A stretch of 64,000 nucleotides of DNA from Candidatus Aegiribacteria sp. (GCA_021108005.1 JAIORS010000076.1:8860-72859); one strand, 5' to 3'; positions 17,896-41,561 are shown, counted from the stretch's first letter. Notes: a model not told the origin generated them from the sequence alone. Numbers and translations are program-made.

Positions 17896-18924
17896 ATGGA
17901 ATCATCGTTTTTCGCGGTAATCATGGCGGGGGGAAGGGGAACCCGCTTCTGGCCGGTTTCAACCGGAAGAATGCCCAAGCAGTTTCTGCGGCTTACGGGC
18001 AGCATGACGATGCTGCAGGAAACAGCCGTCAGATTCGAGGGGCTCTGCGGACATGGGGATATTATGGTAGTTACAGGTAGTGATTCTCGTTCAACGGTTA
18101 TCGATCAGCTTCCATGGATCAGTGAGAACAACCTGCTGCTTGAACCCTCCGGCAGGAATACAGCCGCATGCATAGGCTGGGCGGCAAAGACCCTCATTGA
18201 AAGGGGCCGCGGTTCGGATCTTATGGTGGTTGTCCCCTCGGATCATGTCATCGATAACCCGGATGGATTCAGGAATACACTTTTGAAAGCGGCCATTCCC
18301 GCTGCGGACGGGAAACTTGTAACTATCGGAGTAACACCGGACCGTCCCGCAACCGGATACGGCTACCTTGAGAAGGGAAAATGTCACAGTGAAGGAATTT
18401 ACGATGTTTCATCCTTCAGAGAAAAACCGAATCTGGAAGAAGCTGAAGAATACCTTGAAAACGGAGACTATTTCTGGAATGCCGGCATGTTCATCTGGAG
18501 GGCAGACGTGATCATGAAGGAAATTGCCAGATACCTTCCGGAGCTTTCGGAAGGGTTGCGGAAACTCGGTACTGGAACCTGTCCGGATCAGGTTAGGTAC
18601 GATTCTCTTCAGTCTGTTTCCATAGATTTCGGAGTAATGGAAAAAGCTGATAACGTTGTATCGGTTCCCGCGCAGTTCGGATGGAACGACATCGGAGACT
18701 GGCCATCCGCAAGAAGATGCGGTGTGGGCAGGGGGGAGGTTCTCGCGATGGACAGTGTGAACACAACCGTCTGGAACGACGGGAAGCTTACCGTTCTTCT
18801 GGGCGTTAGCGATGTATCCGTCGTGGAGACCGATTCCGTAACCCTTATCATGAGTGATGAATATTCTCAGAAACTAAGAGAAGTCGTTGCAGATCTGGAA
18901 GATACAAAGCCAGATCTTGTATAG
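17896..18924 (+). CDS. manC: Mannose-1-phosphate guanylyltransferase
   Basis: VIMAGGRGTRFWPVS and GYGYLE motifs. It starts immediately after manA. Confidence 0.85.
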   Translation: MESSFFAVIMAGGRGTRFWPVSTGRMPKQFLRLTGSMTMLQETAVRFEGLCGHGDIMVVTGSDSRSTVIDQLPWISENNLLLEPSGRNTAACIGWAAKTLIERGRGSDLMVVVPSDHVIDNPDGFRNTLLKAAIPAADGKLVTIGVTPDRPATGYGYLEKGKCHSEGIYDVSSFREKPNLEEAEEYLENGDYFWNAGMFIWRADVIMKEIARYLPELSEGLRKLGTGTCPDQVRYDSLQSVSIDFGVMEKADNVVSVPAQFGWNDIGDWPSARRCGVGRGEVLAMDSVNTTVWNDGKLTVLLGVSDVSVVETDSVTLIMSDEYSQKLREVVADLEDTKPDLV

Positions 18925-20573: not shown

Positions 20574-21896
20574 ATGAATGGAGGGTCAGATTTGACTTTA
20601 CTGAATCGCAATCGAATGATGATTCTAATTTCTGTAGCAACATTCGCTTTACTATCAGCTTGCTCCTCACCGGCTGTAACGGGTATGAAGGTGCATATGC
20701 AGAACCAGGAGTACGACGAGATTATCTATCTCGCTGACAGCGTAATTGCCAGGGGAGATTCTCTGAATGCTGAAATCTGGTTCTGGAGAGGCATGGCCTT
20801 TACAGAGCAAGTTAAATGGTCTGAGGCCGCCGAATCATTCCTTAAAGCAGACGAACTTGATACAAACGGAGAGCTGGCGGTAAACGAATACTGGTTCGTA
20901 TTCTTTAACAGCGCCGCTAATATTATGAACGACGGAGACATAGGACATACCGTTGAAATACTGGAAACGGGTATGCATGTAGCTCCCGAAAGACCTGATT
21001 TTGAGCTTATGCTGGGTGATATTGAGATAAACATAAACAATGATTTACCAGCAGCCCTTGAAGATTTTCAGAATGCATCCCTGAAAGCGGAAGAACTGAT
21101 AGCAGACATTCAGGAACTTATTAACAGTACGGACGATCCGTATACACTGAATTATTACTCGCAGAGCCTTGAAAAGGCCAAAAGCCTTTTCATTCAGTCT
21201 CTTTTCAATTCGGGGAGCGTTCTGACCATGATAGCCATCGACGCCACGGAAGAAGAGATGCTGGAGTACTTGCATCAGGCCCAAGATGCTTATAGCAAGG
21301 CTCTTGAGATCGACCCTACGAACGTTGACATGCTCGACGCTCTCGCAGGGGCGTGTATGCTTGAAGGCGATTATGAATCAGCTCTCACCATTTTCAACGA
21401 AGCTTTCGCTAACATCGATCTGGGGCTTTCAGAAGGCTGGCTCGAAGAAGAAGAGGCGGATCAGATCAAGGCAAACATATTCGTATCCAAGGGTTACGCC
21501 TATATTGAGATGGAAGACTTCCAGCAGGCAATAATCGAGCTTGACAATGCGAGGAACCTCATAGGTGACGATTTCGTAGTTCTTTCAACTCTTGCGCATG
21601 CCAACTTCATAATGGAGAATTACGATGAAGCTCTTTCGATTCTCGATTCTATCATGATTATGGATGGATTGACTCCCGATCAACTTGCCAATGCTTACTA
21701 TACAAGATATGCCTGCTGCAACAGGAAAGAACTGGATTCTGAAGCTGCAGAGGCTCTGGAAACAGCCCTTGAGTACCAGCCTGACAATGCCAACTACTGG
21801 CGCTACCTTGCAAGTACCTACAGCCGGCTTAACCGCAGGAATGACGCAATTGATGCAATGGAGAGAGCAAACCAGCTGGATTCAGAGAACGAATAG
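20574..21896 (+). CDS. TPR-repeat lipoprotein
   Basis: Lipobox LLSAC after a hydrophobic leader; the start may be the downstream MMILIS.. Met at 20616. Multiple TPR-like A/Y/W-x-A repeats to the C-terminus. Confidence 0.7.
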   Translation: MNGGSDLTLLNRNRMMILISVATFALLSACSSPAVTGMKVHMQNQEYDEIIYLADSVIARGDSLNAEIWFWRGMAFTEQVKWSEAAESFLKADELDTNGELAVNEYWFVFFNSAANIMNDGDIGHTVEILETGMHVAPERPDFELMLGDIEININNDLPAALEDFQNASLKAEELIADIQELINSTDDPYTLNYYSQSLEKAKSLFIQSLFNSGSVLTMIAIDATEEEMLEYLHQAQDAYSKALEIDPTNVDMLDALAGACMLEGDYESALTIFNEAFANIDLGLSEGWLEEEEADQIKANIFVSKGYAYIEMEDFQQAIIELDNARNLIGDDFVVLSTLAHANFIMENYDEALSILDSIMIMDGLTPDQLANAYYTRYACCNRKELDSEAAEALETALEYQPDNANYWRYLASTYSRLNRRNDAIDAMERANQLDSENE

Positions 21897-21991: not shown

Positions 21992-22306
21992 TCAGTCGCT
22001 GCCTATGCTTACAAGAAGCTGACTCTTCTGAACTGTATCACCCATTTTTACATGCATCCGCTCTACTCGGCCCTTGATTGTTGAGCATATCTCATTATGC
22101 ATCTTCATGGCATCGAGAAGAAGCAGTACATCGCCCGGCTGAATACCGTCACCTTCGGATACTTTAATATCAACTATGGTTCCGGGTATGAAAGCCCTGA
22201 CCTCAGAGGGATCTGGTGCGCCTTCGTAAGGCTTCAGGCTGCATTCAGGTATCTCTGTGGAGTAATCAGTATCGTCAATTGTGAGTTTATCCAGTTTACT
22301 ATTCAT
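21992..22306 (-). CDS. Biotinyl (biotin carboxyl carrier) domain protein
   Basis: Biotin attachment motif LLLLDAMKMHNEI. 104 aa. It sits directly downstream of the carboxyltransferase. Confidence 0.85.
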   Translation of the reverse strand: MNSKLDKLTIDDTDYSTEIPECSLKPYEGAPDPSEVRAFIPGTIVDIKVSEGDGIQPGDVLLLLDAMKMHNEICSTIKGRVERMHVKMGDTVQKSQLLVSIGSD

Positions 22307-22318
22307 GATTTCCCGCCT

Positions 22319-23854
22319 TTACAGAGGTATGTTTCTGTGGGGACGGCCTGTTCTGGACTGCTTGGCCACAGAGAGAACTTTAATAAGAGTGTCCCTGGTT
22401 TCGCTGGACTTTATTATCGTGTCAACGTATCCTTTTTTCGCGGCAACGTAGGGATTGGCGAATTTCTCTTCGTACTCATCGACCTTTTCCTGTCTATATG
22501 CATCAGGGTCGTCAGCAGCCGCTATTTCTCTTCTGAATATGATATTGGCCGCTCCCTCAGGTCCCATTACAGCGATTTCACCACTGGGCCAGGACGCGAC
22601 GAATGTAGCTCCAAGGTGCCTGCTGCACATGGCAATGTAAGCTCCACCGTAAGCTTTTCTCATGATAACTGTCATCTTTGGAACTGAGGCTTCGCTGTAA
22701 GCGTAAAGGATCTTTGCTCCGTGTCTGATTACTCCCGCGTGTTCCTGATCCACTCCCGGAAGGTATCCGGGGGTATCCACAAGGGTCAGCAGGGGAATAT
22801 TGAAGCAATCGCAGAATCTTATGAATCTTGCTGCCTTGTCCGAAGCGTTCACATCAAGAACACCGGCAAGAACCCTGGGCTGATTTGCTACGATTCCTAT
22901 GGACCGGCCTGCAAGCCTTGCGAAGCCTACAACAATGTTTCTGGCGTAGTACTCGTGTACCTCAAGAAAATCGGAAGCGTCAACAATACCACGGATAATG
23001 TCTTTTACGGAGTAAGCCTGCCTGCGATTGTCAGGAATAACATCATCTCCAAGAGGCTGATCGGGAGGAATGGGTTTTCTGACCGGAGGGTTTTGCTTTG
23101 AGTTGGCCGGGAGGAATGAGAGAAGTTTCTTAACGGTGTTGAACGCATCCACTTCGGTTTTCGCATAGAAGTGCGCGTTACCGGTGATAGAAGCATGGGT
23201 CATCGCGCCACCAAGCTCCTCCTGGGTTACTTCTTCTCCCAGGACGGTTTTGATCACCTGTGGCCCGGTTATGAACATGTGGGATATTTTGTCGACAACA
23301 AACACGAAATCCGTAAGGGCGGGTGAATAGACCGCGCCACCTGCGCAGGGGCCCAGGATGACGGAAATTTGAGGAACATCTCCACTGAGTCTGGTATTGC
23401 GGTAGAACAGCTCGCCGTAACCGCAGAGGGATTCCACTCCTTCCTGTATTCTGGCTCCGCCGGAGTCGTTTATTCCAATAAGGGGTATTCCAGCCTCCGC
23501 TGCGCCATCCATTACCTTAACGATTTTCATTGCATGGGCTCTTCCGAGGGATCCTCCGGCAACTGTGAAGTCCTGCGCGAATACGGCAACTGCTTTGCTA
23601 TCTACCTTTCCATAACCTGTTATGACTCCGTCCCCGGCCATTTCCTTCCTGTCCATCCCGAAATCCTTTACGGAATGCTCTACGAAAAGGTCTGTTTCAA
23701 GAAAAGAATCCTTATCAAGCAACAGATCTTCTATACGCTCTCTGGCCGTGTTTTTTCCCCTTTTCTTCTGTTTTTCAATTGCCTTATCACCGCCGCCCTT
23801 CAGTTTGCTGGACAACCGAGCGATGAAGTCGTTTACAGATCTTTTTATTGACAT
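22319..23854 (-). CDS. Acyl-CoA carboxyltransferase (methylmalonyl-CoA decarboxylase alpha / propionyl-CoA carboxylase beta family)
   Basis: INDSGGARIQEG, ILGPCAGGAVYSPA and the duplicated crotonase-like halves. 511 aa. Confidence 0.9.
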   Translation of the reverse strand: MSIKRSVNDFIARLSSKLKGGGDKAIEKQKKRGKNTARERIEDLLLDKDSFLETDLFVEHSVKDFGMDRKEMAGDGVITGYGKVDSKAVAVFAQDFTVAGGSLGRAHAMKIVKVMDGAAEAGIPLIGINDSGGARIQEGVESLCGYGELFYRNTRLSGDVPQISVILGPCAGGAVYSPALTDFVFVVDKISHMFITGPQVIKTVLGEEVTQEELGGAMTHASITGNAHFYAKTEVDAFNTVKKLLSFLPANSKQNPPVRKPIPPDQPLGDDVIPDNRRQAYSVKDIIRGIVDASDFLEVHEYYARNIVVGFARLAGRSIGIVANQPRVLAGVLDVNASDKAARFIRFCDCFNIPLLTLVDTPGYLPGVDQEHAGVIRHGAKILYAYSEASVPKMTVIMRKAYGGAYIAMCSRHLGATFVASWPSGEIAVMGPEGAANIIFRREIAAADDPDAYRQEKVDEYEEKFANPYVAAKKGYVDTIIKSSETRDTLIKVLSVAKQSRTGRPHRNIPL

Positions 23855-23888: not shown

Positions 23889-26321
23889 TCATTTGTGTTC
23901 TTCTTGTCGGGGTATACCTTCCGAGAGATATTCACCCCATTCTAACATGGATTCAACCGCAGGACTAAGATAATTAAGTTGCCTCAGCAAGCGGTAGTCT
24001 TCCATTGCCGCTTCTATAGAACCGTTCATCCATAAGTATCGGGCTCTTCGATATCTGGCCTCATGGAAGGCTTCGGCTTTATCAATGCATTCAGAATAGA
24101 ATTCGATAGCCTGGTCAGGGCTGCCTGTGATTCCTGCGATATTTCCCCTTATCAGGAGTGTATAGAGATTTCTGTTCAGTGACAACGATGAGTCGCCCCA
24201 GAGTACAGCAAGGGAATCCATCCCGGCAAGGGCGGCCAAACCGCCCGAAACGGAAAACGTCCAGGGAGAGTGAGCCTCCGACCCGTTCATTACCGCCATT
24301 ACGGAATCCATGGATCTATCACGCATTCCGCAGACGAACATCGCCGAGGCTTCCACTATACTGGAATCGGCCCCTGACATATCTCCCTTCAGGTACTTAT
24401 CCCATATGACAGGATGTACATTTAATGGAGGTATACTGTTCTCTGAAGGGTGTTCACCGGCAAGCAGGGCCAGGCATCCCGTCAGCATTTCATCTCCTGA
24501 ATATTCTGCCGCTTCAAGAGCCTCATCGAATCTCCCGTTTCTTGCGTTGGCCCACGCCTGCAACTTCCTCATCCTTGGATCATCGATGCATGGTGTATCT
24601 CCCCGCAGTGCTGACCTGAGAGCTGTTTCCAGACTGTCGTTTCCGAACTTGAAGGGAAGAGTATCGGTATCCGTTATAGAGCCATCGGAAAACAGAAGCG
24701 CTGTGGTTGTGATGATCGAAGGCGCGAAGTTAAGAGGGGGGGATGAAGCCAGCAGCAATTCTTCCTTCCAGCCTTCAGGCACCAGATAAAAAGGTGTTTC
24801 AAGAAATAAATCCTGGGACAGAGGGTCTATATGGGGAAAGCTGTGCCACTGGAATCCGATTGATTCGATGTACGTTTTCCTGCCGTATACGATGGTGACA
24901 CTGTCCCAGTATACAGGACACCAAAGCGGGCTTGCCGAGAGTATGTAAGCGGATGATTCGCCGGGTTTCGGCCAGTCGTAAATGGCCAGGTTGATTCCGC
25001 GGGAATCTAATATGTTCATGACCGTGCGTGTGTCCTGCATGCGGGAACAGGCCAGAATAAGGTATTCGGCGTACATTCTTTCCGGGAATAGGTGACAACG
25101 CCCGTCCATGTACAAAGGTAGTCTTTCTCCGAAAGTGTACTGGAGGTATCCTGAAATTTCATTCGTATTGAATATCCTGGTTTCAAGCAGCTCATCGTTT
25201 TCTTCCAGGAATTCTGCCAGCTGTCTGGGATATATGGACCAGTCCACTCCGAGTCCTATTTCCCTGGGAGGACCGAACTCCATAGGTATTCCTGTTACGA
25301 ACGGAACAACAGCAGCAGCAGCCAGCATCACTGTCGAAAGGCTGAATGGAACCCGCTTCAGGAGGGGGGCTGTCCAGGCTATAGCGGCGAGGGCGAGCAT
25401 ATCGATATTTCTACTGGAAAGAACGGTAGCAATTGAAAGAGCCCCCAGGGCTACCATTCGAGCTGTGCCAATTTTCTTCCTTTTAATTATCACCAGTGTC
25501 CATGTGGCGGCAAGGATTAATACAAGGATGATGGCAGTCGTTGAAATCGAATGGCCCGGCTGGTACAATGGATGAAAGGGGCTCCACCATTCCCTTATTG
25601 TTTTCCTGAAGAGGGGGCGGGAAAGGAAATCAGTGATGTAAGTGAATGACTTGAAACCGTTCGGGTGAACGCCGCAGCTCAGAATTGCCGCTCCCAGAAC
25701 CCCGATTTTACGGATTACTGTCTTCCAGTTTTTCGCAAGCAGGCTCTCAAGGACTGGAATGCCGAGAAGAAAGTAACCCATAATGAATCCTGCGTGGGCA
25801 TTGGTCCAGAGTATCTGAAGGGGAATGAAGATTGCGAGGGATTTCATGAAGCCGCCCGTTCCTCTGGCGAGAAGATAGAGGTAGAGGCTGAAAAAGAAGA
25901 GGGATAATATATGGGGCCGAACGATCCACCTTCCATGGCTCAGGATGAACCAGAGGAGCCCCGTGAGGACTACAGCCTGAACACTGGCCCCTCTCCGTCT
26001 GGCTGCAAGATAAACGAGCAGTATTGAAAATACTATCGTAAGAGTTTTAAACAGTACAAGACCCGAATCTCCACAGGTCATCCGGGAAGCGGCAAAGAAC
26101 ACTTCCGCCAGCCATTCCTGCTGAAGCCATGTATTCCCCCTGCAGGTCCAGGTGAATGGATCAGATGTGCGTATCTCCCCGGTTTCGATGATGTCTTCTC
26201 CATTGCGAAGATGCCAGAAGATGTTACCGTTATGCACTGGAGTCATGCAGTAGATCGCGCAGACCGCGAGAAATCCGGCAAGCAGAATCATGGTTCTGGC
26301 AGAAGATTCAGTATTTATCAA
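23889..26321 (-). CDS. Large polytopic membrane protein (GT-C-like N-terminal half) with a soluble C-terminal half ending in TPR-like repeats
   Basis: 810 aa. Many hydrophobic segments occupy the first ~400 aa, with a loop motif FWHLRNGEDI..DPFTWT..QQEWL. A soluble region follows (..YMDGRCHLF..) and then helical repeats. Confidence 0.55.
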   Translation of the reverse strand: MINTESSARTMILLAGFLAVCAIYCMTPVHNGNIFWHLRNGEDIIETGEIRTSDPFTWTCRGNTWLQQEWLAEVFFAASRMTCGDSGLVLFKTLTIVFSILLVYLAARRRGASVQAVVLTGLLWFILSHGRWIVRPHILSLFFFSLYLYLLARGTGGFMKSLAIFIPLQILWTNAHAGFIMGYFLLGIPVLESLLAKNWKTVIRKIGVLGAAILSCGVHPNGFKSFTYITDFLSRPLFRKTIREWWSPFHPLYQPGHSISTTAIILVLILAATWTLVIIKRKKIGTARMVALGALSIATVLSSRNIDMLALAAIAWTAPLLKRVPFSLSTVMLAAAAVVPFVTGIPMEFGPPREIGLGVDWSIYPRQLAEFLEENDELLETRIFNTNEISGYLQYTFGERLPLYMDGRCHLFPERMYAEYLILACSRMQDTRTVMNILDSRGINLAIYDWPKPGESSAYILSASPLWCPVYWDSVTIVYGRKTYIESIGFQWHSFPHIDPLSQDLFLETPFYLVPEGWKEELLLASSPPLNFAPSIITTTALLFSDGSITDTDTLPFKFGNDSLETALRSALRGDTPCIDDPRMRKLQAWANARNGRFDEALEAAEYSGDEMLTGCLALLAGEHPSENSIPPLNVHPVIWDKYLKGDMSGADSSIVEASAMFVCGMRDRSMDSVMAVMNGSEAHSPWTFSVSGGLAALAGMDSLAVLWGDSSLSLNRNLYTLLIRGNIAGITGSPDQAIEFYSECIDKAEAFHEARYRRARYLWMNGSIEAAMEDYRLLRQLNYLSPAVESMLEWGEYLSEGIPRQEEHK

Positions 26322-27900
26322 GTATCGTCCTTATCCTCTCTTCAGCAATCCTGTTTTCAACGTAGTTCAGCGCCTTTTCTTCGCAGATAATCCTGTCATT
26401 TTCATCTTCGGACTGTATCGCCCTTCGTGCCCATAATTCAGCAATTTCATCGGACGCGAATATATCATGAACATCTCCCTCGTAGCGGAAAATGTCGTAT
26501 ATGTTCCAGTCAACCGTATCGCCTTCCGAAGTAAAAAGAAGCCCGTTGAGATGGAGTTCAATCTGGTCCCAGCCGCGTGTTGCGTAGACCCGTCTTCCCG
26601 AAATATGGTCCGGTAGTTCGGAAGGTGGCGGAATCCGGAAAAAGCATTTGAAAGCATCCATTGGAAGTATGTCAGGTCTTATATCCTCTACTTCAAGGAG
26701 ATACGCGGTATGGTATGTAGTCATGCCCACAGATACAAAGACCGCTTCGGGAGCGGTTCCTCTGATGAAATCACGGGTAATCAGAGGAGCAGCAGTATCG
26801 TTTCTCCTGGAAGCGTGGGAGATACCGGACAGTATCGAAGCCAGCAGCAGAATCCATGCAGCAGTTCTTTTGTAGACCCCGCTGCTCAGCATTCTGCCCA
26901 GGCCCAGAGATGCCCAGATCGTAAGGGGAACCAGAAGTATCCAGAGTATGCTGGCTGTATCCGGTATGGAATAGCTGGACAGGAAAATCAGACCGGCAGC
27001 CGCTGTGAGGAAAAGACCAGGGGACCACCTGCGGGAGTAAAATATGAATATTCCGATAACCGTAAGCGATATTACTCCTGTACTTCTGTAGAGAGCTTCA
27101 AACCCGCGGAGAGCAGGTACTGTCAATCTGGAGCCGTATATTGTAAGGTAATTCCAGAGAAGGGGGACATTCGCCGGATACGAGTAATGGCATACGGCCT
27201 GGAATGTTGATCTTATTGGAATGAACAACCAGAGAGAGAGTGGTATTATTCCGAACAGCACCCATCTTCGTTTGAAAATTCGTGATACTATGGATGGAAA
27301 AAACAGCACTGATACCGGATGGCCTCCGAACAAGGATAGTGAGAAGAAGTACGGACCTGCCGGTGAATTCCTGAGAGCAAGCGCGGTCAACACCAGAAGA
27401 ATCGCAAATCCGTGAACTTCTACGATGTTAAGCTGTCCTAAAACAGGTCCGAGCGTGAAGAGTAGAATTGAACCGCTCAGGGCTCCCGCCCTGCTGCATC
27501 TAAAACTTCTTATAGCGGCGCAGGCGGCGATTACGCCTCCCCCCGCAAAGATGGCGGATGCAATCCTGAGGCAGGCATAATCAAGATTCATGCACGGAAT
27601 GATAACGGAAAACAGCCTCAGCATGAAAATGAAAAGAGGATAGCCCGGCGGATGTGGCAGTTCCAGGTTCGTGCCGCACAGGACGAATTCAGGACCATCG
27701 ATGAAATCGAACCCGGAAGAACCTGTAAACCAGGCTGCAGCACTGATTGCGGCTGCGACTATCAGAACCAGGCAGAGGTATCGCCTGTGCCGCACTATTC
27801 CTTTAATCGGCGGAGACCGATGACAGTGCATCATGCGATTCGGAAAGAAAGTGACTGAAAAGCTCGTTCTCAGGGTAAAGCTGTGAAGCATAAAATGCAT
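26308..27900 (-). CDS. DUF2723 / TMEM260-like polytopic membrane protein (putative GT-C glycosyltransferase)
   Basis: ELPHPPGYPLFIFMLRLF sits just after the first TM segment and is followed by many TM segments. GGAGG lies 10 nt upstream of the ATG at 27900. The gene overlaps its upstream neighbour by 98 nt. Confidence 0.55.
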   Translation of the reverse strand: MHFMLHSFTLRTSFSVTFFPNRMMHCHRSPPIKGIVRHRRYLCLVLIVAAAISAAAWFTGSSGFDFIDGPEFVLCGTNLELPHPPGYPLFIFMLRLFSVIIPCMNLDYACLRIASAIFAGGGVIAACAAIRSFRCSRAGALSGSILLFTLGPVLGQLNIVEVHGFAILLVLTALALRNSPAGPYFFSLSLFGGHPVSVLFFPSIVSRIFKRRWVLFGIIPLSLWLFIPIRSTFQAVCHYSYPANVPLLWNYLTIYGSRLTVPALRGFEALYRSTGVISLTVIGIFIFYSRRWSPGLFLTAAAGLIFLSSYSIPDTASILWILLVPLTIWASLGLGRMLSSGVYKRTAAWILLLASILSGISHASRRNDTAAPLITRDFIRGTAPEAVFVSVGMTTYHTAYLLEVEDIRPDILPMDAFKCFFRIPPPSELPDHISGRRVYATRGWDQIELHLNGLLFTSEGDTVDWNIYDIFRYEGDVHDIFASDEIAELWARRAIQSEDENDRIICEEKALNYVENRIAEERIRTILDKY

Positions 27901-29995
27901 GTGTCCGGAGCCTCCTGTTGTCGCCGGCTTCAGCAGCCGCGAGACAGGCTATCTCAAGAAGAGATGGATTCGGCTCCCCGGATGCGGCAATGGCTCTTTC
28001 GGCGTAGGCCGTCGCTTCCTCTGCACGGTTTGCATGCAGATACCACACAGCGGCGGTTCTGAGGATAGAGGGAGAAGCGGGATTCAATGCAAGGCATTTG
28101 TCAAGAAGATCCTCATGATCAGGTGTGCTGCCAGCTGTTATGGGCGCCATGAGACGTGAGGACATTATTTCAATGGAACCGGGGAATTTCGAGACGCCTT
28201 CAGAATAGAGGGAATCGTAATCGCCATTTTCCAGAGCTGTCAGATGTATTGCCCATGCGTAATGGTTTGCCCGGGCGTCAGGATGAGTCACAGCTGCCCT
28301 GGCCCAGGAGGCAGCTCTTTCCGAATATCCGTTCATTGAACAGGCTCTCGAAAAAGCATTGAAAAGCTCAGGTGATGCCCCGCTAATTTCCATTGCCCTC
28401 TGGATGAAGAGGGTATCCGTATTTCTCGATGCTCTGGCCAGTATTATCCCGGCAACATCCACACGATCAACAAGTTCTGGATTTGACAGAACCTCGATCA
28501 TAATATTCTCGAATTCCTTCATCCTGCCCTGTGAAAAAGCCAGATTCAGCCCTGTTTTGTACGCGTCAGGCGAATCATCGCCCTGGATTACAGCAATTTC
28601 GTATGCCCATCTTGCTCTGTCCATATTGCCGTCATCCAGTTCCGACTTCGCCAGGTTAAGCATATTACCGCCCGCACTTGCCGCAGCGGTTGCGACCGGA
28701 AGGGAAAAATCCAGTCTTCCGTTTCTGCATACCGCGTCGTTGAGCCATGAGTAGTATTCTACAAATGAGGTTGTTCCCTCCGACTGGAACAGTATTACGA
28801 ATAGAACTGTGAGTAGCCCGGCTACAGTTCCTGGAATGGCTTTCCTGACAAGCATTGCGAATACGCAGAGTACTGATGCGGGAATTATGTAGATTCCCCA
28901 TGAAACACCCGCTGGACTGGAGGAAAGGAGAAACAGGACAGGCGCCAAAAGGAATCTTGATATCCATCCGGGCCCCGGGAGCAGTGTAACTGAAATCGCA
29001 AGAAGAGCAAAGACTGTTGTCGACCAGCCGACGGCAAATGAAGCTGAGACAGCGATTATGAACATTGCTGTTCGGGCAATACCTTTCGCAGTCCGTGATA
29101 ACAAGATAAGAAGTGCCGCAAGAAGAGCGCCGGCAATTGATATGAAATCAGCGAATGTCATCACTCCGGATGCCGCGATATATACACTGAGAGCTCCGGA
29201 CAGGGGAATTGATACTTGCCAGAACGAGTGTTTAAGGGAAGTTGCATACTCCTTCCACTCATCCCTGTGAAGAGTTCTGTAGAACCATGCCAGAATGAGT
29301 GTAACCGGAAGGAGATCAATAAGGTAAGTTGTATAATGGAGTGAACCTGTGAAATGCGGAGCCGTTACCGCATGCCACTGGAAGTATTCCTGAACCGTTA
29401 AAGCGTAGGGGAAGTGGTTGACAGTCAGGAGGTACACAAGACTTGGCCAGGTGAAGAACACCAGGAATACCGGCGCGAAAACAACACTCGTGGTTATACC
29501 TCTCAGAATTTTTCTGTTCGATGCGACTGCCCATGAAAACACACCGGCGAGTGCGCACCCTAAGGCAGCTTCGATCCTTATACCGGATGTGGTGCCTGTC
29601 AATTCCACCATAGGGTTGAAAAAATTCATCAGGAAGAATACAGCGTTGTTTCTGTGCAGTGGGAAATACCCGATAGCGGTCGATGATCCCATTATGAAAT
29701 CAAGAAGGGGCGGGAGCAGTGTCAATGTCCAGGCGAAGATCATAAGACGCAGCAATTTTCTCAGGGGGTATCCCGAGAAAAGGTGCAGCAATCCCGTTAA
29801 CCCGAGCATCGGGAATAAGTAAGCTATAGGGAAATGAAAAACAAACGCGGACAGGGGGAAAAGCAGCCCGGCTGAAACCGATTCAAGGAGATTTCTAGTA
29901 ATTATCGTTGCCGCGAACAGCGCGATGAGTTGAGCATCTGAAGCTTTAATCCCAGAAATTCTATCCAAGGTGCTTACGATTAAATTCCTTTTCAT
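27803..29995 (-). CDS. Large polytopic membrane protein with a ~300-aa TPR-like C-terminal domain
   Basis: 730 aa. The first ~430 aa are hydrophobic segments, then helical repeats rich in A/L/Y (..RARWAYEIAV.., ..AEEATAYAERAIA..). ATGA overlap with the lipoprotein gene. Confidence 0.55.
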   Translation of the reverse strand: MKRNLIVSTLDRISGIKASDAQLIALFAATIITRNLLESVSAGLLFPLSAFVFHFPIAYLFPMLGLTGLLHLFSGYPLRKLLRLMIFAWTLTLLPPLLDFIMGSSTAIGYFPLHRNNAVFFLMNFFNPMVELTGTTSGIRIEAALGCALAGVFSWAVASNRKILRGITTSVVFAPVFLVFFTWPSLVYLLTVNHFPYALTVQEYFQWHAVTAPHFTGSLHYTTYLIDLLPVTLILAWFYRTLHRDEWKEYATSLKHSFWQVSIPLSGALSVYIAASGVMTFADFISIAGALLAALLILLSRTAKGIARTAMFIIAVSASFAVGWSTTVFALLAISVTLLPGPGWISRFLLAPVLFLLSSSPAGVSWGIYIIPASVLCVFAMLVRKAIPGTVAGLLTVLFVILFQSEGTTSFVEYYSWLNDAVCRNGRLDFSLPVATAAASAGGNMLNLAKSELDDGNMDRARWAYEIAVIQGDDSPDAYKTGLNLAFSQGRMKEFENIMIEVLSNPELVDRVDVAGIILARASRNTDTLFIQRAMEISGASPELFNAFSRACSMNGYSERAASWARAAVTHPDARANHYAWAIHLTALENGDYDSLYSEGVSKFPGSIEIMSSRLMAPITAGSTPDHEDLLDKCLALNPASPSILRTAAVWYLHANRAEEATAYAERAIAASGEPNPSLLEIACLAAAEAGDNRRLRTHAFYASQLYPENELFSHFLSESHDALSSVSAD

Positions 29996-30774
29996 TGGTA
30001 ACTCCAGATATCATTGGTGTCTTCAAATATGGAAAGAGCGGGAACACTGCCCGGAAGGTCATCTGCCCATCTGAGTCCAGCAAGCAGCTGAATCGTAGAG
30101 AATAGACCACCTCTTGTAATTCCGCTTGGAGTGGAGCCGTTTATCCCTTCTCCCGCAAAAACACACCACCCCCTTGTATCAGGATTTTCAGAAATGGAGA
30201 ACAGTACGATTCTGTATCGGGATAGAATATCAGGGGCTGTCCAGTATTCAGATATTTTAAGGACTGAGGATAGATCCGGGATTCTGAGCACCATCAGAAT
30301 AAGATCAGGTTTGTACATGTCGAATAACTCCAGAAGAACATCCTGACGATTCGTGTTATTCAGCCATGCGGTTCCGGAAATTCCATCAAGAAGTTCTTCC
30401 GGTTGCGATCGTACGTTGCCGCCGCTGTCTACCCATATCCGGATATGGTCTCTGTTTATCTCGTAATCAAGGCAGCTGTCGCTGATGAGAGCCACAAACA
30501 GATCGTTTTCGAGAGCTTCGGTAACAAGCTGATTGCTACTATGGTCATCCTCGCGGGAGTTCGGGGTATCCGGAAGAAGCATGGAAGCAGACACGTTGTT
30601 GCGGCCCGATGAGATATCCCAGGGCAGGCGGGGGGATATTCCGATATCCCTGAATTGAATGATAACAGTGGGAGAGTAATCTGAACCTGTGTTGTCAGAT
30701 TTATCGACTTTATTACCGCATCCTGCGATAATGAGTAGAAGGACCGGGATACATCGGGTCAAGGTTACCTCCAT
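29992..30774 (-). CDS. Lipoprotein of unknown function, first gene of the membrane-protein operon
   Basis: Lipobox LLIIAGCG. 260 aa. I recognise no motif. Confidence 0.55.
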   Translation of the reverse strand: MEVTLTRCIPVLLLIIAGCGNKVDKSDNTGSDYSPTVIIQFRDIGISPRLPWDISSGRNNVSASMLLPDTPNSREDDHSSNQLVTEALENDLFVALISDSCLDYEINRDHIRIWVDSGGNVRSQPEELLDGISGTAWLNNTNRQDVLLELFDMYKPDLILMVLRIPDLSSVLKISEYWTAPDILSRYRIVLFSISENPDTRGWCVFAGEGINGSTPSGITRGGLFSTIQLLAGLRWADDLPGSVPALSIFEDTNDIWSYQ

Positions 30775-30834: not shown

Positions 30835-30866
30835 AAAAAAGCAGGGACCCTTAAGAGGATCCCTGC
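30835..30866 (-). terminator. Intrinsic terminator of the T9SS protease gene
   Basis: On the minus strand, GCAGGGATCC..GGGTCCCTGC forms a 10-bp stem with one mismatch and is followed by TTTTTT (complement of 30835-30840). Confidence 0.75.
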
Positions 30867-30884: not shown

Positions 30885-32606
30885 TTAGTTTGAGAGAACC
30901 ACTTTCTGTGCTGAGATCTTATCGTTTGCGAACAGCATTATAAAATAGGTTCCATTAGACATGTCTGAACCTTCGAACTGCACCGAGTGGGAACCGGCCT
31001 GCATCTCTTCGTCTATAAGTGTGGAAGCAATTCTGCCGCTCATATCGTAGACACACATTTTGGCATTTCCATCGAATGGAAGGTCAAAGGTTACATAGCC
31101 ACCGGCCTGGATGGGATTGGATGAGACATTCAGATTGAGAAGGTCTGTGGTTGAGGGGGATCCCTCTATGCCTGTAGTAGCCGTAATATTGAAAGTGTAC
31201 AGGTGATCCAGAGGGGAATTGGACATAAATGCCGGGAAGAAGATCGCGTAGTCCCATCCGTCGGCGCCGACTGAAACACTGAAATCGCCGGTTGTGGGAT
31301 CGCATTCGTACCAGTCGAAGACGAGTCTTCCGGCGTTATCCTGCATGATTACGCCGAGGTTCCATTCGAAGCTATCTCGGCCGTTGAAGGCCATTTCGAT
31401 CCAGTCATTCTGATAGTTCGTCAGATCAACTTTTATCCAGTGGATGCCGTATCTATCCGGCTCGTAGTTGGTTGTCTGGTCACCGCTGGCCGGCAGAGTC
31501 GTAATGTTATGCCAGGGAAGAACCCTGGGGCCCGGGGTCCAGGTGGATGCTTCTTCTTTGTACATACCGCAGCCGGAGAACCAGTTACCTGCGGTGAACC
31601 ATCTCCAGCAGCCGTAATCCATGAAGAACGATTCGAAATCGGTTCCGTGGCTGGCGAACATCTGCTCGTGGGCTTCGATCAAGCTGCTCCCGGATATTGC
31701 AGCGCAGTTTTCCCACACTTCGCGAACAGCTTCGTAGTTCCATCTGTCCCACATCATCCATGGCCATGTGAAAGCACCGTACCAGTACATCGCGTTGGAA
31801 CGGATATCCATCCAGGGGGTACGGAGTGCGTTATCGCCGGAGGTGATGTACTGCCTGTAGTCGTCAACGTCGGGGTATACCATTTCTTCCATCCAGACCG
31901 CGCAGTTTTCCATGAACCAGGTTTGTTCTTCGTAGCTGTAGGAGAACTGGATGGCGTGCTGGAATTCGTGGGCTACAGTGCAATTTCTACAACCAACGTT
32001 CGTGATACTATTGCCTATGACAACATGGCTTGCGGAACACGCCTGGGAGGAATCGGGCGGGTGGTATTCGCCGTTGCGACTTGTGTATCCGAGTGTTCCT
32101 CCTTCAAGGTGGCAGATGTAGATATCGTAGAGATCGTCGCCGCCTACGCCGTTATCGGGAGGGGGATAAATAAAATTCATTTCGTTACATTCAACCTGCC
32201 AGGATGAATCCGCAGCGACGGCAACTGTGTACGCGTACGAATAGCTGGTCGCGTCTACACCCGAATTGGTCCAGTGGATTTTGAAGTGACCGTCATCTGA
32301 GTTGAACGTCTGTACAGGCCCGCTAAGGATGGGACGGCTTGCAAGCGGTGAGTCGATGTCAGCGGTAAGTCGGCTGGCTTCGAGAAAAGCGGGTGTTCCG
32401 CAGGGAACGTGATCGGTTCCCTCTGTATAAATCGATGGCAGATTATCGTAATCCGTTACGCTCCGGATCAGAAGATCCGCTGCAACAGTATTTGTGATCT
32501 CTCCCGTTTCCAGAGCCGACAGAATTCTGTCCATGGAAGTATCTCCAAGCGCGATGCCGGAGATAATCAACAGAAGAGAAGCAAGAAGAGCAAGAGTACT
32601 TTTCAT
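30885..32606 (-). CDS. Secreted HExxH metalloprotease-like protein with a T9SS (Por) C-terminal sorting domain
   Basis: Signal peptide MKSTLALLASLLLIISG and zinc motif VAHEFQHAIQ. The C-terminal ~80 aa (..VYDMSGRIASTL..GSHSVQFEGSDMSNGTYFIMLFANDKISAQKVVLSN) are typical of a type A T9SS CTD. Confidence 0.75.
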   Translation of the reverse strand: MKSTLALLASLLLIISGIALGDTSMDRILSALETGEITNTVAADLLIRSVTDYDNLPSIYTEGTDHVPCGTPAFLEASRLTADIDSPLASRPILSGPVQTFNSDDGHFKIHWTNSGVDATSYSYAYTVAVAADSSWQVECNEMNFIYPPPDNGVGGDDLYDIYICHLEGGTLGYTSRNGEYHPPDSSQACSASHVVIGNSITNVGCRNCTVAHEFQHAIQFSYSYEEQTWFMENCAVWMEEMVYPDVDDYRQYITSGDNALRTPWMDIRSNAMYWYGAFTWPWMMWDRWNYEAVREVWENCAAISGSSLIEAHEQMFASHGTDFESFFMDYGCWRWFTAGNWFSGCGMYKEEASTWTPGPRVLPWHNITTLPASGDQTTNYEPDRYGIHWIKVDLTNYQNDWIEMAFNGRDSFEWNLGVIMQDNAGRLVFDWYECDPTTGDFSVSVGADGWDYAIFFPAFMSNSPLDHLYTFNITATTGIEGSPSTTDLLNLNVSSNPIQAGGYVTFDLPFDGNAKMCVYDMSGRIASTLIDEEMQAGSHSVQFEGSDMSNGTYFIMLFANDKISAQKVVLSN

Positions 32607-34334: not shown

Positions 34335-35435
34335 ATGACCATTTGCACCTGTATTGTATTTGTTCTTTCAGGGATTTTCTCTGTTGATTACCTGCCTCCG
34401 CCTGATGGAATCGGTTCGGAAATACTGCCCCTGAACACAAGATCCTTCGGCATGGGTGGAGTATGTGTCGGAGTGCCTGACAGTACCGGTTTTTCGATGC
34501 TTAATCCCGCGGCTTCCGCCTGGACTCTTGATGGGGGTGTCTGCTTCGGGGGGAAATACAGTGAAGGAGATGTGAAAGCCTGGGATAATCAACTTGGTTT
34601 TCCGATGATCTCGGCCTTTGTGCCCTTGCCGGGAGGAATCGTGATATCCGGAGCCATAGATGGCAGAAGCAGGCTTGATTCCGAGCTTCAGGAAGCTGTC
34701 AGTGACAACTATACAGGAGAATTTACCTGGTCCGGTGGCATTGTGGAAACCTATACCGGCATCTCTATCAGCGCTAACGACTGGCTGGCCTTATCGTTTG
34801 GAGGGCGCTGCTCCTTCGGAAATATCCTTTCCGATATAACACTGATCCCATCCGACAGTATTTCTCCGATTCCGATCAATTCCGTTTACCGTGATGATGC
34901 CCGTTTGAGAATGGCATGGGGCGGCACATTCGGGATACTTGTCAATACTGACCGATTCGGGCTTGGATTCTCGATATCAACCGACAGGAAGGGAACCCTT
35001 GAAGTAAACAGGGACTTTCTAACGTCAGGATCACCTGACAGCTCCAGCAGCATCTATTCCCTTCCAGGTGAAATAACCGCAGGAATATCCTTCAGACCGG
35101 TTGAAAGGCTTCTTTTAGGTGTTGATATCTACAGTAGAAAAGTCCTGAACATCCTCGGAAGCTGTACGGATGACGGAAGTGTATATTCGGTTGGAGCGGA
35201 AGTGAATGTGGGAAACGGCTTATTAACCCGCTGCGGATTCAGCTATATGGATGGATTATGGAGGGACGGGGCTGAAACCTTCTCTGCCGGTGCCGGATAC
35301 AGTTTCAGCGAAGGAAGGGCCGGAATAGATATTGCGGCCGGTTATCAGTACTGGCGCGGCGTTCAGGACCGCTTCCAGGAGGAAACGGTGTTATGTGTTT
35401 CATTATGGGCTACTGAGAAATGGCTGGGACGATAG
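34335..35435 (+). CDS. Outer-membrane beta-barrel protein candidate (PorV/FadL-like pattern)
   Basis: N-terminal TRSFGMGGVCVGVPDSTGFSMLNPAA motif and alternating amphipathic strands with G/S/D turns through to the C-terminus. Confidence 0.4.
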   Translation: MTICTCIVFVLSGIFSVDYLPPPDGIGSEILPLNTRSFGMGGVCVGVPDSTGFSMLNPAASAWTLDGGVCFGGKYSEGDVKAWDNQLGFPMISAFVPLPGGIVISGAIDGRSRLDSELQEAVSDNYTGEFTWSGGIVETYTGISISANDWLALSFGGRCSFGNILSDITLIPSDSISPIPINSVYRDDARLRMAWGGTFGILVNTDRFGLGFSISTDRKGTLEVNRDFLTSGSPDSSSSIYSLPGEITAGISFRPVERLLLGVDIYSRKVLNILGSCTDDGSVYSVGAEVNVGNGLLTRCGFSYMDGLWRDGAETFSAGAGYSFSEGRAGIDIAAGYQYWRGVQDRFQEETVLCVSLWATEKWLGR

Positions 35436-36142
35436 CTGCTTCAGATAGAATCATTGCCATAGTCCCCGCCAGGTACGCTTCCACAAGACTTCCCGGGAAG
35501 CCACTGGCGGACATAGCAGGCATTCCAATGATAATCAGAGTACTGCAGGGGATAAGTGATTCCGTTGACAGGGCAGTGGCGGCAACCGATGATAAACGTA
35601 TTATGAATACCGTACAGAACGCCGGCTTTGAGGCTGTTTATACTGGAGAAGCCATATCAGGTACTCAAAGGGTCTTCGATGCCTGGAAACTGCTTGGTTT
35701 TCCGGGAGATACCATAATAAACGTGCAGGGTGACGAACCCCTTGTAAATGAAGACTGGATCAATTCACTCACATCGGTACCCGCTCAGGATGATCGAATT
35801 GTTACACTTGCCAGGGAAACACCAGCTGAGCTCATAGGATCACCCGATTCAGTCAAAGTCGTGCTTGATGAAGAGCGGGAAGCTCTGTATTTTTCCAGGT
35901 ATCCCATTCCTCATGGTTCGGATAATCTGCTGGAACACATCGGAATCTATTCTTTCAGTCCGGAATCGCTGACGAGGTGCGTCGAAGCAGGGAGTACCTT
36001 TCTTTCCAGGGCTGAAAGGCTTGAACAGCTTGCCTGGCTTGAACGGGGAATTCGAATCCGGGTTGTAACCGGTGAATTCCGGGGAATAAGTGTTGATACT
36101 TCGGAAGACCTTGAGAGGGCGGTGGATTATTTCAGTACATGA
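35420..36142 (+). CDS. kdsB: 3-deoxy-manno-octulosonate cytidylyltransferase
   Basis: IVPARYASTRLPGKPL and VQGDEPL motifs. Confidence 0.9.
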   Translation: MAGTIAASDRIIAIVPARYASTRLPGKPLADIAGIPMIIRVLQGISDSVDRAVAATDDKRIMNTVQNAGFEAVYTGEAISGTQRVFDAWKLLGFPGDTIINVQGDEPLVNEDWINSLTSVPAQDDRIVTLARETPAELIGSPDSVKVVLDEEREALYFSRYPIPHGSDNLLEHIGIYSFSPESLTRCVEAGSTFLSRAERLEQLAWLERGIRIRVVTGEFRGISVDTSEDLERAVDYFST

Positions 36143-36917
36143 TAAAACCCCGTTTTTTGTAATTGGCCCTTGCAGCCTTGAATCCAGGGAAATATCGGCA
36201 AGAGTTGCCGAATTCACGGCAGAACTTATAGGATCACTGGATCAACAGGTCGAGTGGGTTTTCAAGGGTTCCTTTTTAAAGGATAACCGAACCAGCCATA
36301 ATTCCTACCGGGGTCCTGGAATGGATGAAGGCTTGAGGATACTGGAAGAAATTTCTGAATCGTTCGGTGTCAGAACCATTACCGATATTCACAACGCGCA
36401 GCAGGCCGTTCCTGTAGCCCAGGTGGTCGATGTTATCCAGATCCCGGCGTTCCTATGCCGGCAAACCTCGATTCTCGAGGCGGCAGGAGCTGCTGGAAAA
36501 CCGGTGAACATTAAAAAGGGTCAGTTCATGAATCCTGAAAACATGAAGGGTGCTGTAACGAAGACTTCGGAAGCAGGATGTCCTGAAATTTGGTTGACCG
36601 AAAGAGGCACGTTTTTTGGCTACGGTGATCTCGTGGTTGATTTTCGTTCACTTTCGGTAATGAGCGAATTCTCGGACAAGGTTATTCTGGATGTGACCCA
36701 TTCCCTTCAGCGCCCCGGAGCAGCCGGAGGTCAAAGTGGTGGCTGTCGGGAGTACGCTCCCGCCCTTGCGAGGGCAGGTGCGGCATGGGGTGTTGACGGC
36801 CTCTTTATTGAGACGCATCCTGACCCTTCTTCAGCGCTGAGTGATTCCGCGACAATGGTGGATTTCGATACTCTTGAAGCCATGGTAAGGAAAGCTGTTT
36901 TTCATTGGGAAAGCTGA
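36090..36917 (+). CDS. kdsA: 3-deoxy-8-phosphooctulonate synthase
   Basis: FFVIGPCSLES, FKGSFLKDNRTS, IPAFLCRQT and HS.QRPG motifs. The true start is probably one of the in-frame TTG codons (36093 or 36111) or the ATG at 36090. Confidence 0.9.
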   Translation: MLILRKTLRGRWIISVHDKTPFFVIGPCSLESREISARVAEFTAELIGSLDQQVEWVFKGSFLKDNRTSHNSYRGPGMDEGLRILEEISESFGVRTITDIHNAQQAVPVAQVVDVIQIPAFLCRQTSILEAAGAAGKPVNIKKGQFMNPENMKGAVTKTSEAGCPEIWLTERGTFFGYGDLVVDFRSLSVMSEFSDKVILDVTHSLQRPGAAGGQSGGCREYAPALARAGAAWGVDGLFIETHPDPSSALSDSATMVDFDTLEAMVRKAVFHWES

Positions 36918-37399
36918 TAATGCGACTTGAAGGAATAAAACTGCTGGCTCTGGATGTTGACGGAGTACTTACAGACGGAGGGATGTACTACGGTGCTGAG
37001 GGAGTGATTCAGCGATTCAATTCAGCAGACGGGGCGGGGATAATTGAACTTCGAAGGAGGGATTTCCCGGTTGCACTGGTTTCCTTCAGAGATTTCCCCG
37101 CAACCAGGAGAAGGGCAGCTGACCTCGGGATAGAACTGCTGTGTCTGGGCAGCGCCGAGAAGGCAGAAGCCCTTAGAAGTATTTGCGGAAACCTGTCGAT
37201 TGAACCTGAAGCCGCGTTATTCATGGGTGATGGTCTTATGGATCTGCCTGCAATAAGAACTGCAGGAATCGGAGCCTGTCCTTCCAACGCTCACCCTCTT
37301 GTAAAAGCTGAATGTGATATCATCACAGAAAATGCCGGTGGAGATGGAGCTGTCAGAGAGGTGGTGGATATGCTCCTCGAGAGTCAGGAAAATGGCTGA
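36905..37399 (+). CDS. kdsC: Kdo-8-phosphate phosphatase (HAD)
   Basis: LALDVDGVLTDG and GDGLMDLP HAD motifs. 164 aa. Confidence 0.85.
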   Translation: MGKLIMRLEGIKLLALDVDGVLTDGGMYYGAEGVIQRFNSADGAGIIELRRRDFPVALVSFRDFPATRRRAADLGIELLCLGSAEKAEALRSICGNLSIEPEAALFMGDGLMDLPAIRTAGIGACPSNAHPLVKAECDIITENAGGDGAVREVVDMLLESQENG

Positions 37400-38351: not shown

Positions 38352-38358
38352 ATTTGTA

Positions 38359-41560: not shown

Positions 41561-41561
41561 T

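Follow-up and report, generated by a model that had tools for sequence, protein, structure and literature searches.

A Fermentibacterota gene cluster combining two GT-C-like proteins with an unclassified membrane protein and a lipoprotein: a candidate envelope-modification locus

The minus strand of a 64,000-nucleotide stretch of DNA from Candidatus Aegiribacteria sp. (GCA_021108005.1 JAIORS010000076.1:8860-72859), hereafter the window, carries four closely packed genes between positions 23,889 and 30,774. The genes are named A (29992-30774), B (27803-29995), C (26308-27900), and D (23889-26321), and their open reading frames (ORFs) encode a lipoprotein of 260 amino acids (aa) and membrane proteins of 730, 530, and 810 aa. 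We propose that they constitute a composite, periplasm-facing envelope-modification cluster, and not a set of three paralogous enzymes; in our judgement, this reading has about an even chance of being correct. Proteins C and D resemble GT-C glycosyltransferases, enzymes that work at the outer face of the inner membrane, where they move a sugar from a polyprenyl-phosphate carrier onto a periplasmic acceptor. Protein B contains an unclassified membrane module. A first-pass annotation, made from the sequence alone, gave the same four ORFs, with the coordinates and lengths confirmed here, and proposed three GT-C-like proteins of paralogous architecture. The proposal stands for C and D and is not supported for B, which has a first loop of five residues and no link to GT-C enzymes in Pfam, NCBIfam, PDB, or hhalign comparisons. 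The parts of the cluster, all on the minus strand, are:

29992-30774: gene A, 260-aa lipoprotein, whose small family has been seen only alongside B genes of Fermentibacterota
27803-29995: all of gene B (730 aa), with about 13 helices (residues 20-402) ahead of tetratricopeptide repeats (TPR; about residues 410-720, window 27836-28768)
29081-29995: N-terminal module of B (N-module; residues 1-305, 8 helices), a conserved unclassified membrane module
26308-27795: gene C, DUF2723/TMEM260-like putative GT-C protein of about 495 aa, read from the GTG at 27795; the longest ORF starts at 27900
25296-26321: gene D, membrane domain (residues 1-342, 11 helices), from the AlphaFold model and Foldseek
23907-25295: gene D, predicted periplasmic part, an α/β domain (about residues 343-503) and TPR-like repeats (about 504-805), from model secondary structure and Pfam

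Protein C is related to TMEM260

The sequence of C passes the threshold of Pfam family PF11028 (TMEM260-like/DUF2723) over residues 68-131, with 35.7 bits against a cut-off of 24.2, and the same domain was found in 38 of the 44 C homologues listed. Human TMEM260 (9rql, E = 0.01) was the sole match in a sequence search of the PDB, with D68 and H83 of C aligned to D52 and H67 of the human protein, which mutagenesis identified as essential for its activity (bioRxiv 10.64898/2026.03.17.711096). In an alignment of 43 sequences of the C family, D65, D68, E71, H83, and the PGYP motif are nearly invariant. The segment ELPHPPGYPLF, from which the relationship to DUF2723 had originally been recognized, is present and conserved. 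The sequence evidence supports the assignment of C as a putative GT-C enzyme of the DUF2723/TMEM260 type that has kept the aspartate and histidine of the first loop.

The membrane part of C is followed by a soluble C-terminal domain of about 165 aa containing an RPD motif, which was aligned with the Rossmann-like domain of TMEM260 in a stretch that is not significant. The protein ends after this domain, and no Pfam TPR match was found in it at E <= 1; thus, the TPR tails attributed to the three membrane proteins are present in B and D, and missing from C. A simple count of loop charges did not give a clean alternation for C, and its predicted membrane topology rests on the homology to TMEM260.

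Protein D has a GT-C fold and lies outside Pfam

The AlphaFold model of D (pLDDT 94.9, pTM 0.91) contains 11 membrane helices, an α/β domain spanning residues ~343-503, and TPR-like repeats spanning residues ~504-805. The first loop is 44 residues long (26-69) and includes a short helix (34-47). Foldseek aligned the model with AglB (3wak, E = 8.5e-4, 646 columns) and ArnT (5f15, E = 3.1e-3, target TM-score 0.47, 600 columns), which were the two GT-C structures among the matches listed for D; the others were TPR proteins. By the fold of its model, D is a GT-C protein, as suggested in the first-pass annotation. The TPR assignment is common to Pfam, a PDB profile search, and Foldseek. Counts of lysine and arginine in the loops, averaged over the family, place the N-terminus of D inside and the C-terminus outside, and the α/β domain and TPR are therefore predicted to be periplasmic.

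The region of the first periplasmic loop contains W36, H37, R39, D43, D54, E69, W70, and E73, and the previously noticed motif FWHLRNGEDI..DPFTWT..QEWL is present and conserved. Residues D43, D54, E69, and E73 are found in 82/82 Fermentibacterota orthologues with the region, and D43 is not conserved in distant relatives. The Asp-x-Asp that distant homologues carry directly after transmembrane helix 1 (TM1) is NxN in D. The residues invariant in alignment A5 of the D family are R135, N174, H176, E244, R304, and D473; position 473 is an aspartate in 76 of the 85 sequences from Fermentibacterota and in every one of the 14 from distant relatives.

Pfam detects only TPR in D, the membrane part could be placed in no existing sequence family of Pfam or CAZy, and a profile of the membrane domain found no sequence match in the PDB. 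A unit of about 480 aa, composed of the membrane and α/β parts, occurs in other phyla as stand-alone proteins with no Pfam family assigned; a remote homologue (P0103) carries the GT87 domain PF09594. One TPR-less homologue (locus L003) is encoded in a glycan cluster together with GT2, GT4, GT87, WecG, PMT_2, and Wzy_C-TPR genes. D is the founding member of a GT-C family without Pfam coverage. The profile similarity between C and D is marginal (hhalign E = 0.006, probability 6%).

Protein B contains a conserved, unclassified membrane module

The AlphaFold model of B (pLDDT 82.6) is composed of about 13 helices between residues 20 and 402, followed by TPR, on which Pfam and Foldseek agree. The hydrophobic part of the model measures about 405 aa, shorter than the ~430 aa estimated in the first-pass annotation. 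Helices 20-42 and 48-74 are only five residues apart, and B therefore lacks the hallmark loop of GT-C enzymes; long loops are located at residues 103-136 and 192-217. Family-averaged lysine and arginine counts alternate perfectly across 14 loops, which positions the N-terminus inside and the TPR in the periplasm. The predicted periplasmic location of the TPR tails of B and D is as the glycosylation system proposed earlier would have it.

Alignment A6, which includes sequences from several phyla, contains 22 invariant residues of the N-module: R34, E38, H54, P56, A58, Y59, W89, L91, T92, P95, P96, Y110, P128, G134, T136, G138, R140, E142, F181, G267, D283, and G289. Residues G134 to E142 form a GTTxGIRxE motif. 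By the predicted topology, nearly all of these residues, the polar ones included, are on the periplasmic face of the membrane. Beyond Fermentibacterota, Cys147 is not conserved.

The membrane part of B has no consistent Pfam or NCBIfam match across 49 family members, two of which gave weak matches to Wzy_C_2. A profile of B compared with the PDB yielded TPR matches only, and the N-module had no match in the PDB, Pfam, or NCBIfam. When B was aligned by hhalign with C, with D, and with individual PMT_2, GT87, and Wzy_C proteins, the probabilities stayed below 1%. The 50 matches listed by Foldseek for the whole model in the PDB and BFVD were all to TPR, with E up to 2.4e-3, so that any weaker match of the membrane domain would have been hidden and a fold-level relation to GT-C may exist. 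Since only TPR matches were obtained from Pfam, NCBIfam, the PDB, hhalign, and whole-model Foldseek, the interpretation of B as a GT-C paralogue was rejected as unsupported. Exosortase, CPBP, rhomboid, PAP2, and UbiA were also considered, and no family matched. The idea that B is the membrane subunit of a biotin-dependent decarboxylase, prompted by the carboxyltransferase and carrier genes downstream, was discarded because B has no OAD_beta match and B-like genes elsewhere lack such neighbors.

The N-module recurs in distant phyla

The B family was widened by a scan of species-representative genomes. Residues 1 to ~305 of B recur in Acidobacteriota, Gemmatimonadota, Candidatus Eisenbacteria, Coatesbacteria, and further metagenome-assembled genomes, and the homology ends near residue 305. 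The distant B-like proteins are mostly 680-913 aa long, with C-terminal TPR in 10/10 scanned. A Sulfatase-family gene is located immediately upstream of the B-like gene in three loci of Acidobacteriota (L055, L060, and L072), one of which, L060, has two more downstream, and Phosphodiest-family genes flank it in three loci of Gemmatimonadota (L058, L059, and L070). Some of these neighbors are fused to TPRs.

In three distant B-like proteins, the N-module is followed by UbiA (PF01040) matches that remain below the cut-off (L056 6887-9424, L066 6773-9445, and L073 6842-9430); the best has E = 9.5e-8 and 32.1 bits, with the cut-off at 34.2. The Asp-rich motifs of UbiA are missing in all three, and Fermentibacterota B proteins have no UbiA match. 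In L055 and L072, the B-like gene is followed by one for a spermine-synthase-like protein of about 1046 aa, and the L055 copy also has TPR matches. A 944-aa spermine-synthase-like protein is encoded near P0242 (L079), an outlier among DUF2723 proteins.

Protein A is a lineage-restricted lipoprotein

Protein A has the lipobox LLLIIAG/CGN, in which Cys-Gly is the family consensus; the lipobox recognized earlier (LLIIAG/C) is confirmed, with its cysteine conserved across the family. Relatives of A are limited to 41 representatives among 1.84 billion proteins. Cluster members of these representatives are encoded on contigs that also carry homologues of B and D; one of them bears the name Fermentibacteria. 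No match to Pfam was found for 42 members, and none to NCBIfam or the PDB.

The C-terminal region of A contains the motif RGW..AG..I....GLT..GL..T...LAGL.W....G.PA, which is weakly colinear with alkaline-phosphatase-fold neighbors of distant B genes (hhalign probability 5-7%). The best matches of the A profile among the neighbors of distant B genes are proteins of this fold, and they too are weak. The catalytic positions of alkaline phosphatase are not conserved in the A family. Since the evidence consists of weak colinear matches only, the assignment of A to the alkaline-phosphatase fold was not adopted as a finding and is kept as a lead.

The four genes are tightly packed

Genes A and B overlap in an ATGA, as stated in the first-pass annotation. 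Its 98-nt overlap between B and C is an effect of choosing the longest ORF of C: close C homologues are 494-509 aa long, and a GTG at 27795, preceded by AAGGA 5 nt upstream, gives a protein of 495 aa and a 7-nt gap after the B stop codon. The Shine-Dalgarno-like AAGGA of C spans the stop codon of B. The 14-nt overlap of C and D holds with the TTG start of D at 26321; the ATG at 26291 (800 aa), used in public gene calls, leaves a 16-nt gap instead. The genes are tightly packed under either set of start choices. In the gene calls of relatives, B and C overlap by 20-50 nt.

Conservation of the cluster in Fermentibacterota

Every B, C, or D homologue above 30% identity that bears a name belongs to Fermentibacterota (Candidatus Aegiribacteria, Sabulitectum, Fermentibacteraceae, and Hyd24-12), and the locus was compared in 48 species-level loci of this phylum. 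The order A-B-C-D on one strand is present in 31 of them, and most of the remaining loci are broken by contig ends. The order persists at B identities down to ~35%. Gene A lies directly upstream of B in all 44 related loci that retain the upstream flank, and A-B-C are contiguous wherever the contig permits, with the exception of L020.

Flanking genes and other features of the window

The features adjoining the cluster, all on the minus strand, are:

30885-32606: MXAN_6640-family HExxH metalloprotease with a C-terminal T9SS (type IX secretion system) sorting domain, from NCBIfam; upstream context
30841-30866: terminator-like hairpin with a T-run after the T9SS metalloprotease gene
21992-23854: carboxyltransferase (511 aa) and biotin carboxyl carrier (104 aa), from Pfam; downstream context

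The upstream protease scores 150.5 bits with NCBIfam NF045524 and 27.4 bits with TIGR04183. In relatives, the upstream flank contains a beta-CASP nuclease gene, then one or two MXAN_6640-type T9SS proteases, and then the cluster. Upstream of A, as in L006 (852-4341) and L017-L034, there is always a protease gene; many relatives have tandem copies of it, and in several the distance to A is only 7-16 nt. Between the two genes in the window, the hairpin (30866-30841) has an 11-bp stem with seven G-C pairs, followed by TTTTTTATTG. It has the stem and T-run of the intrinsic terminator described in the first-pass annotation. Terminator-like sites across the region are no commoner than in shuffled sequence. 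A weak promoter-like site (TTAACC-17-TATATT) follows the hairpin at 30827-30799. Because the protease gene of relatives ends 7-16 nt before the A homologue, a hairpin boundary upstream of A may not hold throughout the phylum.

Downstream, D is separated from the carboxyltransferase gene by a 34-nt gap, as previously reported, and a terminator scan found no terminator between them. The carboxyltransferase and biotin-carrier genes probably share a transcription unit with the cluster. Their position after it, in the same direction, holds without exception, including at loci that lack D or C and D together; we discern no functional connection of these genes to the membrane proteins. The downstream order in relatives is carboxyltransferase, biotin carrier, TPR protein, YkuD, and a ManC-like gene, with kds genes beyond. 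The 440-aa TPR protein of the window (20574-21896, plus strand) has a lipoprotein-like signal (..LLSAC..), is convergent with the end of the minus-strand block, and has counterparts at the same position in L001, L004, L005, and L006.

On the plus strand at 17011-18924, a weak phosphomannose isomerase match (22.7 bits, cut-off 22) lies beside the ManC-like nucleotidyltransferase, whose gene relatives also keep close to the locus. The pair could supply GDP-mannose. A lipopolysaccharide (LPS) block on the plus strand (35420-43001) encodes KdsB, KdsA, KdsD (SIS+CBS), a lipid A acyltransferase (PF03279), LptA-like protein, LptB-like ABC ATPase, and RpoN. It is located a few kb from the cluster on the opposite strand and is in part syntenic in relatives. 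Elsewhere on the plus strand, arginyl-tRNA synthetase is split between overlapping frames at 9365-10138 (N-terminal domain and catalytic start) and 9957-11105 (DALR), and at 48174-50896 a 595-aa alanyl-tRNA synthetase ORF is followed by an overlapping 347-aa ORF without a Pfam match. The split synthetase ORFs may reflect frameshifts or assembly errors.

Proposed function and alternatives

The cluster, as we interpret it, comprises two modules. In one, C and D would be GT-C enzymes that take polyprenyl-phosphate-linked sugars to a periplasmic acceptor. C would be the TMEM260/DUF2723-type enzyme with a donor-binding aspartate and histidine in the first loop, and D would have the TMEM260-like layout of a membrane core, α/β domain, and TPR, a design that in TMEM260 binds an extended peptide. 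The TPR of TMEM260 holds the extended acceptor peptide and is needed for acceptor recruitment, and its catalytic base is in the soluble domain, not in loop 1 (10.64898/2026.03.17.711096). In the other module, A and B would form a separate, older pair, with A as an obligate lipoprotein partner of B; most likely, B also acts on a lipid-linked substrate. Because D, and once both C and D, are missing while A-B is kept, we regard the locus as an A-B module joined to GT-C genes, not as three paralogues. We infer that the modules act in one pathway in Fermentibacterota, since B-C and C-D are translationally coupled and kept together to ~35% identity of B, and that this pathway is modular, since D was lost in one clade and C and D are absent near other B-like genes. 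The acceptor would be a protein, and the reaction most likely the O-glycosylation of proteins that reside in the periplasm or are secreted; sugar and donor are likewise presumed.

Several observations weigh against the proposed joint pathway. The order of the genes is conserved phylum-wide, as expected from the first-pass annotation, but not strictly. At least six species have no D at the locus (full-length loci L017, L018, L019, L022, L027, and L034), and there C runs directly into the carboxyltransferase gene, and L020 lacks C and D, with B running directly into that gene; A-B is always kept. Neither C- nor D-like genes were found beside the distant B-like genes at any locus. A region of more than 20 kb is syntenic throughout the phylum, so the adjacency may be inherited and not functional; because the whole region is equally syntenic, the conserved A-D order is weak evidence of functional coupling, and it was not accepted as proof. 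No polyprenyl-phosphate sugar synthase or flippase was found among the scanned or annotated ORFs of the window. In a second aligned stretch of C and TMEM260, which at -2.2 bits is not significant, the C position facing the catalytic base D441 varies between Met, Phe, His, and Gly. The outlier P0242 has Gly-Asp at this position. Two invariant aspartates of the C proteins, D410 and D415, could stand in for D441.

The remaining difficulty concerns D, whose residues 31 and 33 are Asn/Ser-x-Asn in all 82 Fermentibacterota orthologues with the region, whereas the TPR-less relatives from other phyla have Asp-x-Asp right after TM1 (14/14 and 12/14), the position at which other GT-C enzymes carry a key acid. 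Judged by these residues, D may be atypical and use a relocated acid, or it may be inactive. It is quite unlikely, in our estimate, that D is a pseudo-enzyme that has kept the GT-C scaffold and TPR, lost catalysis, and serves as a substrate receptor or scaffold for C. The loss of the Asp-x-Asp would fit this role, as would the lack of TPR in C, when TMEM260 requires its TPR for acceptor recruitment, and the dispensability of D at the locus in one clade. However, the other family invariants (R135, N174, H176, E244, R304, and D473) are kept, D43 (82/82 Fermentibacterota), D54, E69, and E73 could supply the acid, and the base of TMEM260 is located outside loop 1.

The same enzymes, C, D, and perhaps B, might instead decorate a glycolipid or polysaccharide, such as lipid A or the LPS core, an O-antigen-like polymer, or an exopolysaccharide, with the TPRs holding partner proteins. 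ArnT and mycobacterial GT-C enzymes decorate acceptors of this kind. The TPRs and the relationship to TMEM260 favor a protein acceptor, and the LPS genes and the ArnT match favor a glycolipid, so that the observations point both ways. The GT-C structures among the Foldseek matches listed for D are an archaeal oligosaccharyltransferase (AglB) and a lipid A modifier (ArnT), the kdsB-kdsA-kdsD-lpxL-lptA-lptB-rpoN block is 3-10 kb away and syntenic in relatives, and the TPR-less D homologue is part of a polysaccharide gene cluster. Nevertheless, the LPS genes are on the other strand, with protease and beta-CASP genes in between, the combination of GT-C and TPR is best documented for protein O-mannosyltransferases (TMEM260 and TMTC), and no Wzx, Wzy, or initiating transferase genes are nearby. 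We consider a glycan acceptor unlikely.

Slightly less doubtful, though still on the unlikely side, is that two unrelated systems stand side by side, with A-B acting together with or in place of alkaline-phosphatase-fold enzymes and C and D adjacent through deep synteny. A-B could then be a transferase of phospho-substituents, or one using undecaprenyl-diphosphate-linked glycans. The invariance of A-B next to a dispensable D and, once, C speaks for such an arrangement, as do the B-like genes of Acidobacteriota and Gemmatimonadota, which have Sulfatase or Phosphodiest genes at their flanks but in no case C- or D-like ones, and the weak affinity of the A profile to the alkaline-phosphatase-fold proteins among these neighbors. 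Moreover, the outer-face invariants of B (two Arg, one His, and acids) resemble the repertoire of arginine, histidine, and acid reported at the outer face of GT-C clans that use lipid-diphosphate-sugars (PMC10920833). Against it, the translation of B is coupled to that of C (7 nt separate them here, and they overlap in the gene calls of relatives), A, B, and C stay together wherever the contig permits, except in L020, and the link of A to alkaline phosphatase amounts to a 5-7% hhalign probability.

The arrangement of the first-pass annotation, in which A and three paralogous GT-C enzymes form a single four-part system acting on the T9SS cargo encoded upstream, is the least probable and in our view very improbable. 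In its favor, A always follows the protease gene, at a distance of only 7-16 nt in several relatives, and both C and D belong to the GT-C type; yet B has none of the GT-C features tested, the similarity of the C and D profiles is marginal, and the four genes are not strictly co-conserved. Somewhat less remote, although still improbable, is a broader extension of our proposal, in which the N-module of B is a new class of periplasm-facing transferase for lipid-linked substrates, partnered by alkaline-phosphatase-fold proteins elsewhere and by A here, and B, C, and D form a bacterial protein O-glycosylation pathway of the eukaryotic O-mannosylation type. Such a pathway would offer candidates for the O-glycosylation machinery still missing in the related phylum Bacteroidota (PMC12871550).

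Significance

To our knowledge, bacterial DUF2723 proteins have no assigned function, and the locus sets one such putative enzyme in a conserved operon context with D, B, and the lipoprotein A. Enzymes combining GT-C with TPR, and DUF2723 itself, are already known kinds; what is new is D as a GT-C family that Pfam does not include, B as a membrane module both widespread and unclassified, and A as a lipoprotein specific to the lineage. Because 22 of its residues are invariant across several phyla, the N-module of B is a well-defined target for structural and biochemical studies. The identification of human TMEM260 as a protein O-mannosyltransferase is recent. According to a review, the transferase, ligase, and core-glycan machinery of O-glycosylation in Bacteroidota are undiscovered, and homologues of eukaryotic O-mannosylation enzymes have been suggested as a search target (PMC12871550). 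If the cluster glycosylates proteins, its members would become candidate components of an O-mannosylation-like pathway within the FCB superphylum; the link to Bacteroidota is speculative.

Comparison with known systems

Three-component extracytoplasmic systems consist of a polyprenyl-phosphate glycosyltransferase, a flippase, and a GT-C enzyme (PMC11127046). The cluster would share with them a GT-C enzyme that adds single sugars in the periplasm from lipid-phosphate donors, but the defining synthase and flippase genes are absent from the locus and the whole window. Protein B is reminiscent of Wzy polymerases, WaaL/PglL ligases, and SEDS proteins (PMC10920833) in having 8-14 helices and conserved Arg, His, and acidic residues on the outer face, and fusions of Wzy_C with TPR exist, for example beside the D homologue in L003. 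However, B has no Wzy_C domain or profile match, nor a fold match among the 50 Foldseek matches listed, so the likeness is one of residue repertoire only.

The TMTC1-4 proteins (GT105) and bacterial PMT_2-TPR proteins combine a GT-C membrane domain with extracytoplasmic TPR selecting acceptors; as neither B nor D has a PMT_2 or TMTC match in Pfam, the resemblance is limited to architecture. ArnT (GT83, 5f15) and AglB/PglB (GT66, 3wak) are the structural matches of D over 600-646 columns and have in common with its model a topology with the N-terminus inside and the C-terminus outside, a first loop that is long and periplasmic, and a soluble domain that follows the last helix in the periplasm. 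They have no sequence similarity to D, the TM-scores are 0.34-0.47, and D differs in the added TPR and the lack of an aspartate directly after TM1.

The closest counterpart of the cluster's GT-C proteins is TMEM260, the human protein O-mannosyltransferase (PDB 9rql, 9rqm, and 9rqn). Protein C differs from it in the lack of TPR, a shorter soluble domain (~165 aa), the non-conserved position aligned with D441, and its donor, which, given the predicted activity, would be a bacterial polyprenyl-phosphate sugar in place of dolichyl-phosphate mannose; D has no detectable sequence similarity to TMEM260. Nevertheless, C passes the cut-off of PF11028, keeps D68 (D52 in TMEM260), E71, and H83 (H67) of loop 1 in the motif ..DG.EF...HPPGYP.., and has a soluble C-terminal domain whose RPD motif lines up, in a non-significant stretch, with the Rossmann-like domain. 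Independently of C, D shows the three-part layout of TMEM260, with 11 helices, an α/β domain, and TPR.

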